Shown: positions 13,977-19,803 of the stretch, piece by piece
How positions within the stretch are numbered: position 1 is the stretch's first letter
How the letters are laid out: every line of letters begins with the position of its first letter
Source of the DNA: an uncultured virus (IMG/VR IMGVR_UViG_3300042860_003997)
Lineage: Duplodnaviria; Heunggongvirae; Uroviricota; Caudoviricetes
Length of the DNA: 20,000 nt
Strand: one strand, 5' to 3'
Virus record (IMG/VR): IMGVR_UViG_3300042860_003997
Made by a program: the position numbers and the translations under genes
Notes under the pieces: generated by a model
What the model saw: the letters and a program-made list of their open reading frames with translations, nothing else
The model's database searches: none
Told to the model about the DNA's origin: nothing

Positions 13977-16004
13977 TTATCTATAAATTCCACCATATAT
14001 ATTAGCATTTGCATTGTCTGTAAACCAGCTTGGCCCTTTATACATTTGCCCCTCTTTTTTTTCAACATCGGCCAAATTATTACCAATAACATCAAATTGT
14101 GTTGGCTCTAAAGTTCTACTCATTTGACGAGCTAACATATTAGCTATTAATAAAGCGCTATATCGGTCTTTTCTTAATTTACCCTTTTTACCATTTGGTA
14201 ATTTAATTTCTGGAGTATCCCACCGATCACGAGCATTTGGTCCGGTACTAGTTTGTGTCATAACAATAGTAGTTAATTCATTCTTAAGTTCTTCTATTTC
14301 TAACACACATTCGCTTTCACTATCATATAGATTACTAAGATCAGCAGTCATAATATCTTTATTTTCTCTATCCAGAGCCAACGCTAGAGTAATTTGATCA
14401 AAACGTGGAAATAATAATACTTTATCTTCTAAGTCTTTTCTTAAACCATGATTAGCCTGTGCTGTCCAATCTGCTCGTGCAAATTGCACTAATTCTAAAA
14501 TATGTAAACCAGATTGATCATCAGTATCCTTTGGTTTATTTATATCTATTACTGGCCATATTAAATTTTCACCCTCTTCTAACTTACCAGGATCATGTAG
14601 AGCCTCTTCTACTGCAACACCACCACCCTGAGCATCCATGCCAATACGAGTACAAGGAAAAATTTTCATCAGATTACGAATTTTCCTAGCACAGAAACCA
14701 TAAAAATCGTGCTCGTTTACTAGTCCTGTTTTCTGTCGATCTTTAAAATTATTTCTATTAGTACTCCATCCATAAACTATACGACTATGATCTTTATGTA
14801 ACTCTAAAATAACTATAGTAAAATTATCTTTTTCACTCGCTGGATCAATACCATAAATATATTGAAGATCAGGATTGCCTTTGGTACTCACATCAAATAA
14901 AACATTATTTCCATTAACACTAATTGGTCTAGATTCATTAGTAACACAACTCTCAATAAGACTACGCCTAAAGAATCCATCACTATCTTCTGTAAAACAA
15001 GCAGCATATTCCATATTATATATGCCAGTATGAATAGTAGCCTTAGCTCTACTTACTTGTTTGTCATCCATGAATCCTTTTGGAATTAACTCGTATGGAA
15101 TACGAATAATACTATAGTCTTTCCAATTAAAACTATCTGGTACTTCACCCTTAAAGATTTCTTCTAGTTTATGCTTATCTCCCTTGCTATTAATAATAGC
15201 TTTGTATCTTTTCCAGTAGCTGGCAAAATGCTTAAAACTATAGTCTGCGGTACCAGCAATAATAGCTTGGTTACCCTTTTTAATTTGTACTGCCTCTAAT
15301 TCATCATTCCATAATCCAGCCTCTAACATTGCTGCTTTTTTAGCTTCCTCTTTAACGTTCTGAATAGGACTGGCACTTACAGCAGCGAACCCTGATACTA
15401 CTGTCTCATAAATATCTGGTGAGATTGATGCGAACTCGTCTGCGATGATAATGTGTGCTCTTAAACCTCTGATCTTACTACCATCGCCCATAGGAACCGC
15501 AATTGTCCAACTTTCGCCCAGTCTCATAGTGCATCTGTCAACATCTCGACGCGGACCATCATCGTTTCCACTAAAGATGCTACGAAGAATGGGACTATTA
15601 CGCCACAACGTTTCCATATATTCGAATATGATTTTACTCTGTCGGAAAGCTGCACCAACCACAACAATCTTTGTTCCAGGAACCAGTATGCACCTAAGCG
15701 TACAATACATAGCCATAAGAAAACTTTTACCGAAACCACGAGAGGCCACAAACATAGGAAATGGTCGTAACCAAAACTCTTGTAGTATTGCTATTTGAAT
15801 AGGATGAAGTTCAATATCAAATAATAGTTTCGCTGTGGTTCCAAAATAATGAGGATCTCGTAATAGTCTTAACAAATGAAGATCAGGATTTTCTATATCT
15901 TCTTTGGTTCGGCCAATCATGTGATTGGTCGGAATAATTATTTGACTAAGATCTCCAAGTCCTAGCCACGCATTGTCATATAGTAGATTACTTTTTAGTA
16001 CCAT
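13977..16004 (-). CDS. terL: Terminase large subunit
   Basis: HPIQ Q-motif, Walker A ASRGFGKS, IRGLRA, Walker B IIIADEF, RNase H-like YGIDPA...KDRYSAL. Confidence 0.95.
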   Translation of the reverse strand: MVLKSNLLYDNAWLGLGDLSQIIIPTNHMIGRTKEDIENPDLHLLRLLRDPHYFGTTAKLLFDIELHPIQIAILQEFWLRPFPMFVASRGFGKSFLMAMYCTLRCILVPGTKIVVVGAAFRQSKIIFEYMETLWRNSPILRSIFSGNDDGPRRDVDRCTMRLGESWTIAVPMGDGSKIRGLRAHIIIADEFASISPDIYETVVSGFAAVSASPIQNVKEEAKKAAMLEAGLWNDELEAVQIKKGNQAIIAGTADYSFKHFASYWKRYKAIINSKGDKHKLEEIFKGEVPDSFNWKDYSIIRIPYELIPKGFMDDKQVSRAKATIHTGIYNMEYAACFTEDSDGFFRRSLIESCVTNESRPISVNGNNVLFDVSTKGNPDLQYIYGIDPASEKDNFTIVILELHKDHSRIVYGWSTNRNNFKDRQKTGLVNEHDFYGFCARKIRNLMKIFPCTRIGMDAQGGGVAVEEALHDPGKLEEGENLIWPVIDINKPKDTDDQSGLHILELVQFARADWTAQANHGLRKDLEDKVLLFPRFDQITLALALDRENKDIMTADLSNLYDSESECVLEIEELKNELTTIVMTQTSTGPNARDRWDTPEIKLPNGKKGKLRKDRYSALLIANMLARQMSRTLEPTQFDVIGNNLADVEKKEGQMYKGPSWFTDNANANIYGGIYR

Positions 16005-16729: not shown

Positions 16730-17531
16730 TAAGATTTACTGCCTCCTCATTTAGTATGGGGCAATCAACACTATGATCAGAATATTGATGATATCCATAA
16801 AGGGTCTGTTTAGCTTTTTCTGTAGCCAAGGCCAATATTTCCATCTCACGACCTTCTTTTTCTCGTATCTCTTCGTCTTCTAGCATACGTATTAAACCAA
16901 CCCAGCTACTTTTACCATCTTCGATTCTTTTAATACGTTGCTCTCTCGTAGCCTTAAGGTCCTTGCTAATTTTTTGTTGCTCGTTTAAAAGCTTAGTATA
17001 TTCATTTGTATAACTTGCTATACTGTTGCGGGCGAAACTTAATTGAGCTTCTAAATTAGCGAGTTTAGGAATGTCTCGTTGATCTTCGGGCTTTTCGTAT
17101 TCTTTATCAACCAATTTTTGTAATTTTTCAGTTTCACTAATGTGTCGTTTTCGCTCTTTCATGCTACGATTAATAAGAATATCTATGGTGATAAACTGTT
17201 TGATCTGAAGTTCTTCGGCGGGCAAAACGTCTTCTCTGAATTGTTTAATAAGGCCAATCCACGTATTTTCAAAGTATTCTAATTCGCCCGTGTGTTCATC
17301 AAACTGTCGTACTATTTCGGTCCAGAAAGTTTTACTTCGTAGCTTGCGCCGAAGAGTTTCATTCTCATTTTTTTCTTCGCTGCTAAATAATTGATTTTCA
17401 TCAATATAACGATTGACTGGTTCCACATTACGATTAAGTTGCTCTGCAATAGCTTCTATGCTAAGAGAGTTAATATTATCAGTAATAAATTTCTCTTCGT
17501 CTAAACTTAGTTGTCCGCGTTTTTTAGCCAT
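16710..17531 (-). CDS. HTH/coiled-coil protein, possible terminase small subunit
   Basis: N-terminal HTH-like LSIEAIAEQLNRN, long coiled coil, upstream of TerL. Confidence 0.4.
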   Translation of the reverse strand: MAKKRGQLSLDEEKFITDNINSLSIEAIAEQLNRNVEPVNRYIDENQLFSSEEKNENETLRRKLRSKTFWTEIVRQFDEHTGELEYFENTWIGLIKQFREDVLPAEELQIKQFITIDILINRSMKERKRHISETEKLQKLVDKEYEKPEDQRDIPKLANLEAQLSFARNSIASYTNEYTKLLNEQQKISKDLKATREQRIKRIEDGKSSWVGLIRMLEDEEIREKEGREMEILALATEKAKQTLYGYHQYSDHSVDCPILNEEAVNLNDSELQ

Positions 17532-18174
17532 GGTCGTTCATGATCTCCTGTAGTTTAGATGTTAACTTATCCATATCGCTCTTGGTTACTTTGGATCCGT
17601 TCTTAACTTTAAGATATATTGTGCGATATTCTCCTGTTAAGTGTGTTTCTACCAACTTAAAAATTTCGTTGGATGCTATGGAATTTGTTAATAAACTATC
17701 ATCACTACTAAAAGCGTTTCCGTAATCTTTAATTTCATCAATGGTGGTAAGGTGCATAAGATTCTTTTTGGTATTATTACGACTTAGCCAATTCTCATAT
17801 AGTTCACAGTCTTCTTTGTTAGAGTAGTCAACACAACCACTAATGCTCTTTTTGCAGTGGGGGTCGTATAGGGGACAACTCAAACACGGTTTGTCTGGTC
17901 GTTGATAGTTATCTCTTTTGTAGTTGAATAGTCGATTTCGAACGTGGGTCCAAAGAAAGTTTTCGAGGGGCCTTTTGTGGTCGTAATTTTTTAAGCCTTC
18001 CAAAGCAAATATGCTAATCTGCTGTTTCATATCGTCGTAGTCATGATAACCAAATTTAAATTTGTAGGCTAATTTTTTTGCTATTATATTAACTACATTA
18101 AGAAATTCGTTTTCATCAACTGTTAGTGGATGTTTCGTTTTGAGTTTCGTCGGTGTCTTTTTGGGTTTTTTCAT
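17524..18174 (-). CDS. Sigma70-family-like phage transcription factor with Cys-rich insert
   Basis: Region 2-like DDMKQQISIFALEGLKNYD...LENFLWTHVRNRLFNYKR, then CLSC..C..C..C, then a short region 4-like tail. Confidence 0.7.
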   Translation of the reverse strand: MKKPKKTPTKLKTKHPLTVDENEFLNVVNIIAKKLAYKFKFGYHDYDDMKQQISIFALEGLKNYDHKRPLENFLWTHVRNRLFNYKRDNYQRPDKPCLSCPLYDPHCKKSISGCVDYSNKEDCELYENWLSRNNTKKNLMHLTTIDEIKDYGNAFSSDDSLLTNSIASNEIFKLVETHLTGEYRTIYLKVKNGSKVTKSDMDKLTSKLQEIMNDHG

Positions 18175-18365: not shown

Positions 18366-18575
18366 ATGGCAAACTATAAGAGATGGAGCGACGCAGAATT
18401 GCAGTATATTAAGGATAATTTATCGTCGTTTAGCGATATTGAGTTGGCTCAAAAATTAAGCCAAATGACAGGTGAAACTGTTAGTTGCAGCATGATACGA
18501 CGTCAAAGACGAAAACTAGGCATTAGCAAACCTAGAGGTCGTAGAAAAAAGAATATGGAAAATACTAATATCTGA
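18366..18575 (+). CDS. Small HTH DNA-binding protein (69 aa)
   Basis: AAGGA RBS then ATG 18366; WSDAELQYIKDN...SDIELAQKL...MIRRQRRKLGI with basic KPRGRRKK tail. Confidence 0.7.
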   Translation: MANYKRWSDAELQYIKDNLSSFSDIELAQKLSQMTGETVSCSMIRRQRRKLGISKPRGRRKKNMENTNI

Positions 18576-18810
18576 AGTTTCTAGAAGATAGTTTCTGCGT
18601 TCTAAAAGGGGCAAGTGTCGTTTGATGCTTGCTCTTTTTTTATATATGGGGAAAGTGGCTATTAAACTGGCCAATTATATATGAGGGTGCCTATTGTTTT
18701 TGGACCACCGCCGCCTTTTGGGGCCAGACCCCTCGGAAGGGGGGAAAACAGAAAAACCCCCCCTATGGTGGGGAACGTGCCACTATCCCCCAAACGTGGG
18801 GGAAAAGCAT

Positions 18811-18827
18811 AGCAAATATCGTGCCAA
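18811..18827 (-). promoter_or_regulatory. Sigma54 (RpoN) -24/-12 element
   Basis: Minus strand TTGGCACGATATTTGCT matches the TGGCAC-N5-TTGCW consensus. Confidence 0.7.
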
Positions 18828-18871
18828 AAAAATCGAGCGGTGAAACTTTCCCCAACGGAAGTTTTCCTATT

Positions 18872-18907
18872 TTTTTTTCTTGCATTAGCCGATACCATAT
18901 GTAGAAT
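18872..18907 (+). promoter_or_regulatory. Early sigma70-like promoter P1
   Basis: T-tract-c-TTGCAT-tagccgataccatatg-TAGAAT (16-nt spacer). Confidence 0.65.
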
Positions 18908-18927
18908 GATGGAAACGGAGAAAAGAT

Positions 18928-19035
18928 ATGAGAACGAAAATTGTGGAAAGCATTGTGGCGATTCTGGTACATTGTGAAATTGTGCGGAATGATGCTCAAA
19001 TGAAAATCATCATGGAAACGATGGAAAACGCCTAA
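18928..19035 (+). CDS. Small protein, 35 aa (MRTKIVESIVAILVHCEIVRNDAQMKIIMETMENA)
   Basis: GGAG RBS; fills the gap between P1 and P2 exactly. Confidence 0.55.
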   Translation: MRTKIVESIVAILVHCEIVRNDAQMKIIMETMENA

Positions 19036-19072
19036 TTTTTTTTCTGGACAATGCCGATATATAATGTATAAT
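19036..19072 (+). promoter_or_regulatory. Early sigma70-like promoter P2
   Basis: T-tract-c-TGGACA-atgccgatatataatg-TATAAT (16-nt spacer). Confidence 0.7.
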
Positions 19073-19114
19073 CGTGGCATGATGATGATCGAAACCCAAA
19101 CGGAGAGAATGAAA

Positions 19115-19345
19115 ATGACCACTACGCTTCAGCCCGTTTCCGGAATGTATATCAAGGCCGTTCGGAATGATGGTAGGATTTTTGAGGGACAGGTCGAAAA
19201 TGTCCGTCAAACGTCCAAGGGTACACTTGTGGTGGTCAAGAGTCACGCGAACTACATGGGATCGTACCATGGTGAAATGGATTATAGTTCGCTCTACCTT
19301 GAAAATTGCTCCAAGGTTACGCTGGACGATTTCCCCCTCGCATGA
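19115..19345 (+). CDS. Small beta-rich hypothetical protein (paralog A)
   Basis: GGAGA RBS at 19102-19106 (start at 19115, or 19109); similar to 19588..19803. Confidence 0.7.
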   Translation: MTTTLQPVSGMYIKAVRNDGRIFEGQVENVRQTSKGTLVVVKSHANYMGSYHGEMDYSSLYLENCSKVTLDDFPLA

Positions 19346-19373
19346 GGGGGTCTCCCCAATAAGGGGGATTTTT
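19333..19373 (+). terminator. Tandem hairpins with U-tract, probable terminator
   Basis: ccccctc-gcat-gaggggg then tcccc-aataag-gggga-ttttt. Confidence 0.55.
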
Positions 19374-19377
19374 GAAC

Positions 19378-19486
19378 CTGACAAATTGGCAGAGGAGAAA
19401 ACTGCCAAAATGGCAGGCCGCGGGGCCGAACTGCCAAAATGGCAGCCTCAGCAAATCTTGTGCCAAACTCTCTGCCAAATTGGCAA
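19378..19486. repeat. Four copies of a 15-bp palindrome CTGCCA-AAW-TGGCAG
   Basis: ctgacaaattggcag 19378, ctgccaaaatggcag 19402, ctgccaaaatggcag 19431, ctgccaaattggcaa 19472. Confidence 0.9.
19450..19466 (-). promoter_or_regulatory. Sigma54 -24/-12 element
   Basis: Minus strand TTGGCACAAGATTTGCT. Confidence 0.7.
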
Positions 19487-19487
19487 A

Positions 19488-19504
19488 TGCAAATGTTATG
19501 CCAA
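19488..19504 (-). promoter_or_regulatory. Sigma54 -24/-12 element
   Basis: Minus strand TTGGCATAACATTTGCA. Confidence 0.6.
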
Positions 19505-19526
19505 ATAAAATATTTTTTTCTTCTCA

Positions 19527-19564
19527 TTTTTTTTTCTTGCGTGGACGATAATCTAATGTATAAT
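19527..19564 (+). promoter_or_regulatory. Early sigma70-like promoter P3
   Basis: T-tract-c-TTGCGT-ggacgataatctaatg-TATAAT (16-nt spacer). Confidence 0.7.
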
Positions 19565-19587
19565 CAGGGAAACGAAAGGGACAGAAA

Positions 19588-19803
19588 ATGGAAATGCGAA
19601 ATGGTGCGGTGTTCGTCGGTCGCTCGATTCGTGCTATGCGAAATGACGGTAGGGTTTTTGTTGGCAAGATTGTAAAGGTTGCGGCCTATCTTGCTACCGA
19701 TAAGGTAAAGAGGCCGGGCGATACGATGGTAGTTGTCCAGACCGGTAACGATCACCGCTCGATTTATCTTGGCGATCTGTCCGATTGGTATGTTTCGGAA
19801 TAG
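19588..19803 (+). CDS. Small beta-rich hypothetical protein (paralog B)
   Basis: AAGGGA RBS, directly after P3, similar to 19115..19345. Confidence 0.75.
   Translation: MEMRNGAVFVGRSIRAMRNDGRVFVGKIVKVAAYLATDKVKRPGDTMVVVQTGNDHRSIYLGDLSDWYVSE

Follow-up and report, generated by a model that had tools for sequence, protein, structure and literature searches.

The 20,000-nt stretch of DNA analyzed here (IMG/VR record IMGVR_UViG_3300042860_003997; hereafter the window) derives from an uncultured tailed phage. Its structural and packaging genes form an operon on the minus strand, which also encodes an ERCC4 nuclease, an HNH nuclease and a cement protein, and from about position 18880 onward small genes follow on the plus strand, each with its own sigma70-type promoter and terminator. 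Behind two of these promoters, and pointing in the opposite direction, lie three boxes that conform to the -24/-12 consensus of promoters used by sigma-54 (RpoN). The pattern TGGCAY-N5-TTGCW has exactly three matches in the window, all on the minus strand and all intergenic, against a chance expectation of 0.06, and none of 200 shuffles yielded three or more.

Each of the three 17-mers had been singled out in an earlier, sequence-only reading of the window, and we re-found its coordinates, strand, intergenic position and spacing: in all three sites, the GG and GC within TGGCAC-N5-TTGCW are exactly 10 nt apart. That reading had placed the boxes about 35-75 bp from the divergent promoters P1 and P3. 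Measured from the end of the box to the -35 hexamer, the distances are 53 bp for box 1 and P1, and 71 and 33 bp for boxes 2 and 3, respectively, and P3. It had also stated that no convincing minus-strand gene follows the boxes. Indeed, we detected no credible gene after boxes 2 and 3, which run into palindromes, a terminator and the antisense strand of the open reading frame (ORF) at 19064-19345, and box 1 runs into a hairpin and T-run. P1 and P3 were read directly from the sequence; a consensus promoter scan listed P2 but neither of these two. The ORF driven by P3 (19588-19803) is a paralogue of ORF 19064-19345. Two other identities for parts of the box were dropped by eye, namely ATTTGCT as a T4 MotA box, because the bases that follow do not fit, and TTGGCA as a sigma70 -35 hexamer, because there is no -10 hexamer at 16-18 nt.

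Boxes 2 and 3 interlock with four palindromes of the type CTGCCA-N3-TGGCAG, which were absent from the earlier reading (Table 1). Followed along the minus strand, the order is box 3, 1 nt, palindrome 0, 5 nt, box 2, 4 nt, palindrome 1, a 14-nt spacer, palindrome 2, 9 nt, palindrome 3, and finally the terminator and the 3′ end of ORF 19064-19345. The window thus holds multiple copies of a dyad with a 29-bp period, of which palindrome 0 alone is upstream of a box and the others are downstream. The joint between the two elements is tightly kept in close relatives: all 75 unique box-to-palindrome junctions have a gap of 0-5 nt, most commonly 4 nt, and the gap from palindrome to the TGG of the next box is 6 nt in 12 of 23. 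In IMG/VR contigs, 94 stretches show the joined box-palindrome pattern; a contig has one to four of them, all on the same strand.

Table 1. Positions of the sigma-54-type boxes, palindromes and neighboring features in the window.
Feature	Position	Strand	Remarks
Sigma-54-type box 1, TTGGCACGATATTTGCT	18811..18827	minus	predicted start ~18800
Sigma-54-type box 2, TTGGCACAAGATTTGCT	19450..19466	minus	predicted start ~19439; palindromes 5 nt upstream and 4 nt downstream
Sigma-54-type box 3, TTGGCATAACATTTGCA	19488..19504	minus	predicted start ~19477; 33 bp to P3 -35
Palindrome 0, TTGCCAATTTGGCAG on minus strand	19472..19486		1 nt past box 3, 6 nt before TGG of box 2
Palindrome 1, CTGCCATTTTGGCAG on minus strand	19431..19445		4 nt past box 2; spans ~-6 to +9 of its predicted start
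Palindrome 2, 15-mer identical to palindrome 1	19402..19416		14-nt G+C-rich spacer from palindrome 1
Palindrome 3, imperfect, CTGCCAATTTGTCAG on minus strand	19378..19392		9 nt past palindrome 2
P1, sigma70-type (TTGCAT-16-TAGAAT)	18880..18907	plus	-35 at 18880-85, TAGAAT at 18902-07; drives 36-codon ORF 18928-19038
P2, sigma70-type (TGGACA-16-TATAAT)	19045..19072	plus	ORF 19064/19106-19345; no sigma-54 box behind P2
P3, sigma70-type (TTGCGT-16-TATAAT)	19537..19564	plus	-35 at 19537-42, TATAAT at 19559-64; drives ORF 19588-19803
Terminator-like hairpin + T-run	18776-18756	minus (strand of boxes)	~25-45 nt past predicted start of box 1
Terminator-like hairpin + T-run	19353..19368	plus	ends early ORF 19064-19345, precedes palindrome array
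Conserved non-coding block with GGCGGTGGTCCAAAAACA and ATAATTGGCCAGTTTAATAGCC	18640..18745	minus	downstream of box 1; nhmmer, 44 hits across relatives' loci
Sigma70_r2-like ORF	17524-18174	minus	head of late operon; weak match, E 1.6e-4, under cut-off
Large terminase (TerL)	13977-16004	minus	late operon
Tape-measure protein	2-2308	minus	late operon

The box is a feature of the whole phage family. IMG/VR holds 589 TerL relatives, of which we kept 80 loci, and motif counts were made over 81 loci (1.18 Mb). Across these, TGGCAY-N5-TTGCW gave 123 matches corresponding to 87 unique exact copies, against none in the reversed-sequence control. All eight matches in a complete relative of 138 kb (G002) fall inside 5.6 kb, seven of them on one strand, and all seven in a 223-kb relative (G004) fall inside 6 kb; G003 and G005 have one match each, and the reversed pattern has none in these four genomes. 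In the complete relatives, every match falls in one short early region that lies upstream of the terminase gene, at a distance of a few kb. The orthologue of box 1 is retained in relatives immediately upstream of a conserved GGGGGTTTTTTYGTTT tract. An information profile of 82 unique copies (those too near a locus end for full flanks were excluded) revealed conservation over TT-TGGCAY-..AT-TTGCT only, with flanks that are not conserved. Copies with one mismatch number 81, compared with 21 in the reversed control. Intergenic ones vary at positions 1, 4, 12 and 16 (T1>C, C4>T, T12>C/G and W16>G), and their GG and TGC are fixed with two exceptions, one decayed TAGCAC and one TTGT site; the remaining GG/GC "mismatches" sit in coding DNA and are chance hits, for example in a conserved terminase codon run. 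In sigma-54 promoters, GG and GC are invariant and the other positions drift. Given that GG and TGC with fixed spacing are likewise invariant here while other box positions vary, the pattern of substitution carries a sigma-54 signature. The boxes are, therefore, a conserved and non-random feature, and on sequence criteria their core is a member-grade match to sigma-54 promoters.

Distant clades keep the same box and place a different long dyad pair (Type C) after it, starting 12-13 nt past the TGC of the box (11-12 nt past its last base) in 18 of 25 cases. A constant box combined with dyads that vary by clade is what would be expected from a universal sigma factor with clade-specific activators. 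Type C reads yGTAAnnnnTT-N7-AAnnnnTTACr, occurs twice with a G+C-rich spacer, and is present many times per early region (L008, L011, L029, L039 and L068); at these loci, the sigma-54 boxes are separated from the divergent sigma70 promoter by a TGTCAA-N6-TTGACA palindrome. In the clade of a 206-kb contig (L042), the order is Type C dyad pair, box, small palindrome, sigma70 promoter in the same direction and early gene, and a paralogous early gene is preceded by TTGGCACACCGATTGCT alone, 33 nt before its ATG. The box is thus not always antisense or back-to-back, and the L042 arrangement argues for real promoters. The early genes of this clade (L042:2300-5500) belong to a different paralogous family with the motif ..KVYR..RKLLGTFK..A.RFMN; neither they nor ORFs 19064-19345 and 19588-19803 of the window have Pfam or PHROG matches.

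The relation of the boxes to sigma70-type promoters was judged by a simple promoter pattern. Among 82 unique boxes, 41 stand back-to-back with such a promoter, 10 are in tandem with one, one has a same-strand match upstream only, and 30 have none. The distance to the -35 hexamer in the 41 divergent pairs is most commonly 33-34 bp, and a second peak at 61-72 bp represents the second box of a tandem.

The palindrome also occurs in bacteria. We scanned one genome per prokaryote species for two CTGCCA-N3-TGGCAG-type palindromes 10-20 nt apart and obtained 58 loci, mostly in metagenome-assembled genomes (MAGs) of Gemmatimonadota/Longimicrobiales, with several loci per genome; one of the 58 (L130) is a fragment of a phage relative. 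Pfam analysis covered 96 flanking ORFs (86 of 105 candidates plus 10 more), with the Mycobacterium, Paenibacillus, Alistipes and Bacteroidales loci left out. The genes adjoining the palindrome pairs encode DnaK (seven loci), Lon (three), ClpB (three) and Hsp20 (one), as well as UvrA-like proteins (two), amidohydrolases and others. An Hsp20 gene with the palindrome module was found in a Phycisphaerae MAG. Bacterial arrays (L084-L141, L253 and L274) consist of two to five copies with a period of 30-31 bp (29-31 bp counting the phage), and their 15-mer usually has a TTT or AAA center. Within 200 bp of a pair, the density of strict -24/-12 matches is about fivefold that in the remainder of the same loci (11 in 22.5 kb, or 0.49/kb, vs 30 in 300.7 kb, or 0.10/kb), and nine of these 11 are directed away from the palindromes. 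One gammaproteobacterial MAG has a gene with the domain order PAS-Sigma54_activat-HTH_8 that diverges from the pair, with TTGGCACAGTCTTCGCA 95 bp beyond it. In a genome of Bacteroidota (G085), the palindrome precedes TTGGCAC-N5-TTGA by 32 nt at the GrpE gene and by 10 nt at the HtpG gene. Because the palindrome is found upstream of -24/-12 boxes at chaperone genes, it is probably the site of an enhancer-binding ATPase that activates a sigma-54 chaperone regulon, and the bacterial arrays, which precede DnaK, Lon and ClpB genes, often with a -24/-12 box in between, look like a sigma-54-dependent heat-shock regulon. A survey with position-specific scoring matrices predicts sigma-54 promoters at chaperone genes of Planctomycetota and Bacteroidota (PMC12316311); the relevant parts of that paper make no mention of the palindrome. 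As far as literature listings and excerpts show, the CTGCCA-N3-TGGCAG palindrome has no published description.

The proteins that would read these sites were sought in the phages themselves, since the sequence-only reading had suggested looking for a phage gene for RpoN or for a bacterial enhancer-binding protein (bEBP). Neither was found in the five phage records searched (G001-G005, four of them complete; G001, the nearest record to the window, ends at box 1). None of the five has a Sigma54_DBD domain, an activator ATPase or a helix-turn-helix of the Fis type (HTH_8), and the PF00158 hits in them are RuvB. Because the searched phages encode none of the three, any sigma-54/activator system acting here must be the host's. 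The same reading had proposed a motif scan of the genome and its relatives, and the matches did prove to be enriched, clustered in the early region and strand-biased, with a GG-N10-GC spacing that is fixed in homologous regions of relatives. Together with the invariant GG/TGC and the link to the palindrome, these results back the -24/-12 identity of the boxes. The functions that it had attached to them (repressor, roadblock, sink or switch) stay at the level of proposals.

We think it most likely that the region constitutes a sigma-54/enhancer module, albeit one whose parts are inverted and interlocked in an unusual way. Binding by sigma-54, binding by an activator, the trigger and the effect are all things that we infer from sequence, and our confidence in them is graded. 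That host sigma-54 polymerase binds the boxes is probable. That it also fires from them in an enhancer-dependent manner, such that the boxes would be docking modules for host sigma-54 and its activator that in this clade act antisense to early cassettes or give very short transcripts, is a proposition to which we give an even chance. A specific role in the antisense shut-off of early cassettes is more doubtful and is offered tentatively. Of the proposed functions, a stress-gated antisense switch is nevertheless the most attractive, because the boxes are antisense and linked to an enhancer of the chaperone type.

In such a switch, each module between early cassettes would comprise a sigma70-type promoter for the next early gene and, behind it, one or two sigma-54 boxes that point the other way and are interlocked with several copies of CTGCCA-N3-TGGCAG. 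Host sigma-54 polymerase would dock silently at the boxes until a host activator bound to the palindromes opened the complex, probably upon protein-folding stress that rises during infection. Folding stress is the most plausible trigger because bacteria use the palindrome at chaperone genes. Transcription would then proceed leftward, from boxes 2 and 3 into the preceding early cassette, antisense to it, and from box 1 into a terminator that follows at once, and early expression would be damped or shut off. If the strand of the boxes is transcribed, the terminator-like G-run and T-run that is conserved there would make sense. A bolder scenario, which we think unlikely, is that the phage family copied the promoter and enhancer grammar of a host sigma-54 chaperone regulon to the 3′ side of every early cassette; capsid synthesis would overload folding, the host stress activator would fire against the early genes and so time the early-to-late switch in place of a regulator made by the phage, and clades would have swapped enhancers to suit their own host's activator while keeping the box.

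Several observations weigh against transcription from the boxes as their purpose. In the phages, the palindromes mostly follow the box and cover its predicted start (about -6 to +9), a layout that is the inverse of that in bacteria and resembles that of an operator. A transcript from box 1 would be about 45 nt long and mostly terminator, nothing useful lies downstream of the boxes in the window, and in two relatives (L020 and L030) the T-run starts 6 nt past the box. Boxes are often in tandem, 26 or 38 bp apart, and overlapping convergent pairs occur in distant clades (L029, L039, L068 and L024), both of which would be odd for working promoters. Whether back-to-back or in tandem, the box is located at about -68 to -87 of the start of the sigma70 promoter. 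That its place hardly depends on orientation is a hint that the box may serve the sigma70 promoter rather than a transcript of its own. Many copies stem from duplicated cassettes and are hence not independent. The bacterial parallel has its own weaknesses. A strict -24/-12 match is near the palindromes at only 11 of 57 bacterial loci, and the loci with the palindrome belong mostly to G+C-rich Gemmatimonadota (65-72% G+C), which are improbable hosts for a phage with 35% G+C. Of 201 sampled Bacteroidota genomes, 22 have the palindrome, about as in the reversed control, and we rejected it as a Bacteroidota-wide element; G085 is the sole standout, with four sites vs none reversed.

In a rival reading, the boxes and palindromes form an operator array for a phage protein, or for a host protein unrelated to sigma-54, that reads TTGGCA half-sites and represses or activates the sigma70 early promoters, the likeness to sigma-54 promoters being mimicry or chance. 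TTGGCA recurs in boxes and palindromes and around the start of some early promoters; 20 copies, nine of them within 18822-19666, were counted in the window vs 10.7 expected. Relative to sigma70 promoters, the arrays are found at about -70 to -170, the position of the box changes little with its orientation, the adjoining dyads behave as DNA sites rather than RNA stems, and a conserved 69-residue ORF with a helix-turn-helix-like sequence (18367-18575), a candidate reader with a weak Pfam hit only, is located beside the region. However, an unrelated protein would hardly produce a match to the sigma-54 consensus at 11 positions with exact spacing and with just GG and TGC invariant. The constancy of the box while the dyads differ among clades, the presence of the same palindrome with -24/-12 boxes at bacterial chaperone genes, and the lack of HTH_8 in the five phage records all speak against an operator array as well, and we judge it unlikely.

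Alternatively, sigma-54 polymerase, perhaps with its activator, may occupy the sites non-productively, without any RNA output that matters. Docking of this kind could act as an insulator or roadblock between cassettes or compete for the A/T-rich upstream element shared with the sigma70 promoter, or replicating phage DNA could serve as a sink, drawing sigma-54 or the activator off the host's stress genes. It would account for the palindromes over the predicted starts, the terminator right after box 1, the tandem and convergent box pairs, the many sites per cassette, the prevalence of the 33-34 bp distance to the divergent -35 hexamer, and the box position that is similar in either orientation. 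Against it are the L042 clade, in which the box occupies a normal promoter position before protein genes, and the conserved terminators on the box strand, which suggest that this strand is transcribed. We regard purely non-productive docking as unlikely too; it and the operator array are the chief competitors of our reading.

A further alternative is that the boxes are promoters of small structured RNAs, in which palindrome hairpins and a terminator would form antisense regulators or protein decoys. A terminator-like hairpin with a T-run is located 25-75 nt downstream, G-U pairs outnumber A-C pairs in palindrome variants when read on the box strand (32 vs 11 instances, and 20 vs 9 distinct 15-mers), and one 83-nt stretch folds with z = -2.06. 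The other two candidate folds are ordinary, however, with z = -0.67 (the hairpin at 18756..18776) and -0.52, and the predicted start lies inside palindrome 1, so its hairpin would not be fully transcribed. RNAalifold returned no consensus structure on either strand for 40 Type C elements (the hits with E <=1e-7 and near full length out of 64 unique ones), the T-run past the second palindrome is not conserved, and Rfam gave six weak hits, none at threshold, the best being CyVA-1 with 22.7 bits vs 41.4 required (E 0.066). With a G-U bias that is weak, no RNAalifold structure, ordinary fold energies and a start within palindrome 1, we rejected the RNA reading of the dyads and read them as protein-binding DNA sites, and small structured RNAs appear very improbable. 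Equally improbable are repeats for DNA transactions, such as replication-origin iterons, packaging or partition sites, or recombination sites between cassettes: the repeats have G+C-rich spacers and are clustered within a single 6-kb region, some kb upstream of the terminase, but each early-gene cassette has them once, aligned with promoters and terminators, they match a transcription signal and a promoter-proximal palindrome of bacteria, and the window shows neither a replication initiator nor a partition gene next to them.

If the sigma-54/enhancer module is compared with known systems, bacterial enhancer-dependent sigma-54 promoters, of which glnAp2/NtrC and pspA/PspF are examples, come closest. 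They share with the phage module the TGGCAC-N5-TTGCW core with its invariant GG/GC, at least two nearby dyads about three helical turns apart, and independence from sigma70-type hexamers. In contrast to them, the phage has most of its dyads 0-5 nt downstream of the -12 element rather than 70-150 bp upstream, its boxes are in tandem with no gene downstream in this clade, and neither a sigma-54 nor an activator of its own was found in the records searched. The promoters of chaperone genes described above have the same 15-mer in arrays with a 29-31 bp period and a -24/-12 box close by. In bacteria, however, the palindromes are 10-175 nt upstream of the box and a chaperone gene follows, whereas the phage mostly has the opposite order and a predicted transcript that is antisense or very short. 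Enhancers on the 3′ side can work: Gober and Shapiro reportedly showed this in 1992 for the downstream activator sites of Caulobacter flagellar sigma-54 promoters. Those sites are about 100 bp away and not over the start site, unlike the phage palindromes, which overlap the predicted start.

Among phages, lambda oop and P22 sar are short antisense RNAs of temperate phages that are made from sigma70 promoters, once per genome. The likeness consists in a promoter that lies 3′ of a regulatory or early gene, points back at it and yields a short RNA lowering its expression; the difference is that here a sigma-54 box accompanies every cassette and the RNA is a prediction. In Pseudomonas phage YuA, one promoter region (P015) has been associated with a sigma54-like promoter (PMC10914365, which cites Ceyssens et al. 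2008), and YuA thus resembles the present phage, for which this is predicted, in using host sigma-54 besides sigma70 promoters. The excerpted text on YuA describes no repeated cassette array, joined palindrome or back-to-back pairing with sigma70 promoters (PMC10914365). Judging from titles, abstracts and excerpts, we found no literature on arrays of sigma-54 boxes in phage early regions.

The timing of phage gene expression is, to our knowledge, nearly always put down to sigma70 promoters, phage sigma factors, phage polymerases or repressors, and we know of very few phages for which enhancer-dependent use of sigma-54 has been documented. The phage family described here is large, its members have sigma-54 boxes in entire arrays, and the palindrome to which these boxes are joined also marks chaperone genes in three bacterial phyla. 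Should the boxes prove functional, a host ATPase activator would let these phages sense a signal from the host, probably folding stress, which would be a new route for timing infection or for host takeover. The elements would also provide a cis-acting handle for predicting hosts, which should have rpoN and a matching activator, and for finding the activator of the chaperone regulon.

Between the early region and the late operon, the block at 18640-18745 is conserved in all clades and is preceded by the conserved GGGGGTTTTTTYGTTT; the G-run and T-run after box 1, likewise conserved in all clades, comes just before it. The block may serve packaging or recombination, or it may be a promoter or encode an RNA. 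The weak CyVA-1 match spans 18705-18771 on the minus strand, covers G/C hairpins past box 1 and is probably due to chance.

The stretch is present in lake-water metagenomes of 20 studies. It has no DNA-level similarity to cultured phages, and its TerL is at most 25% identical to that of any of them and indicates no host. The complete relative G002 encodes a transfer-messenger RNA (tmRNA; L236:1292-1649) with the tag GNNQLALAA, as identified by ARAGORN, plus nine tRNAs, which may be a clue to the host. We take the tag to be reminiscent of Bacteroidota tags and draw no conclusion from it; the TTGACA/TATAAT-type promoters and GGAG ribosome sites of the phage weigh against this hint. A BLAST search of the tmRNA against five genomes matched at the universal 3′ end only, and the phage GMP reductase, looked up in a protein atlas, was uninformative about the host.

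G002 also encodes DNA polymerase III alpha, DnaB, primase, RecA, RuvB, ThyX, PhoH and a protein with sigma70 region 4, and none of its 77 ORFs of at least 150 codons encodes a phage RNA polymerase. The Sigma70_r4 ORF (L241:10722-11378) is away from the late operon; it and the Sigma70_r2-like ORF of the window (17524-18174) probably encode late-gene sigma factors. The polymerase III alpha gene of G002 is split over two ORFs with an exonuclease gene in between. The same genome also has an ORF of 1126 residues that contains an intein with a LAGLIDADG domain (L240:15118-18495) and one for an actin-like protein of the Volactin family (L242:2115-3113; Pfam E 1.5e-60).

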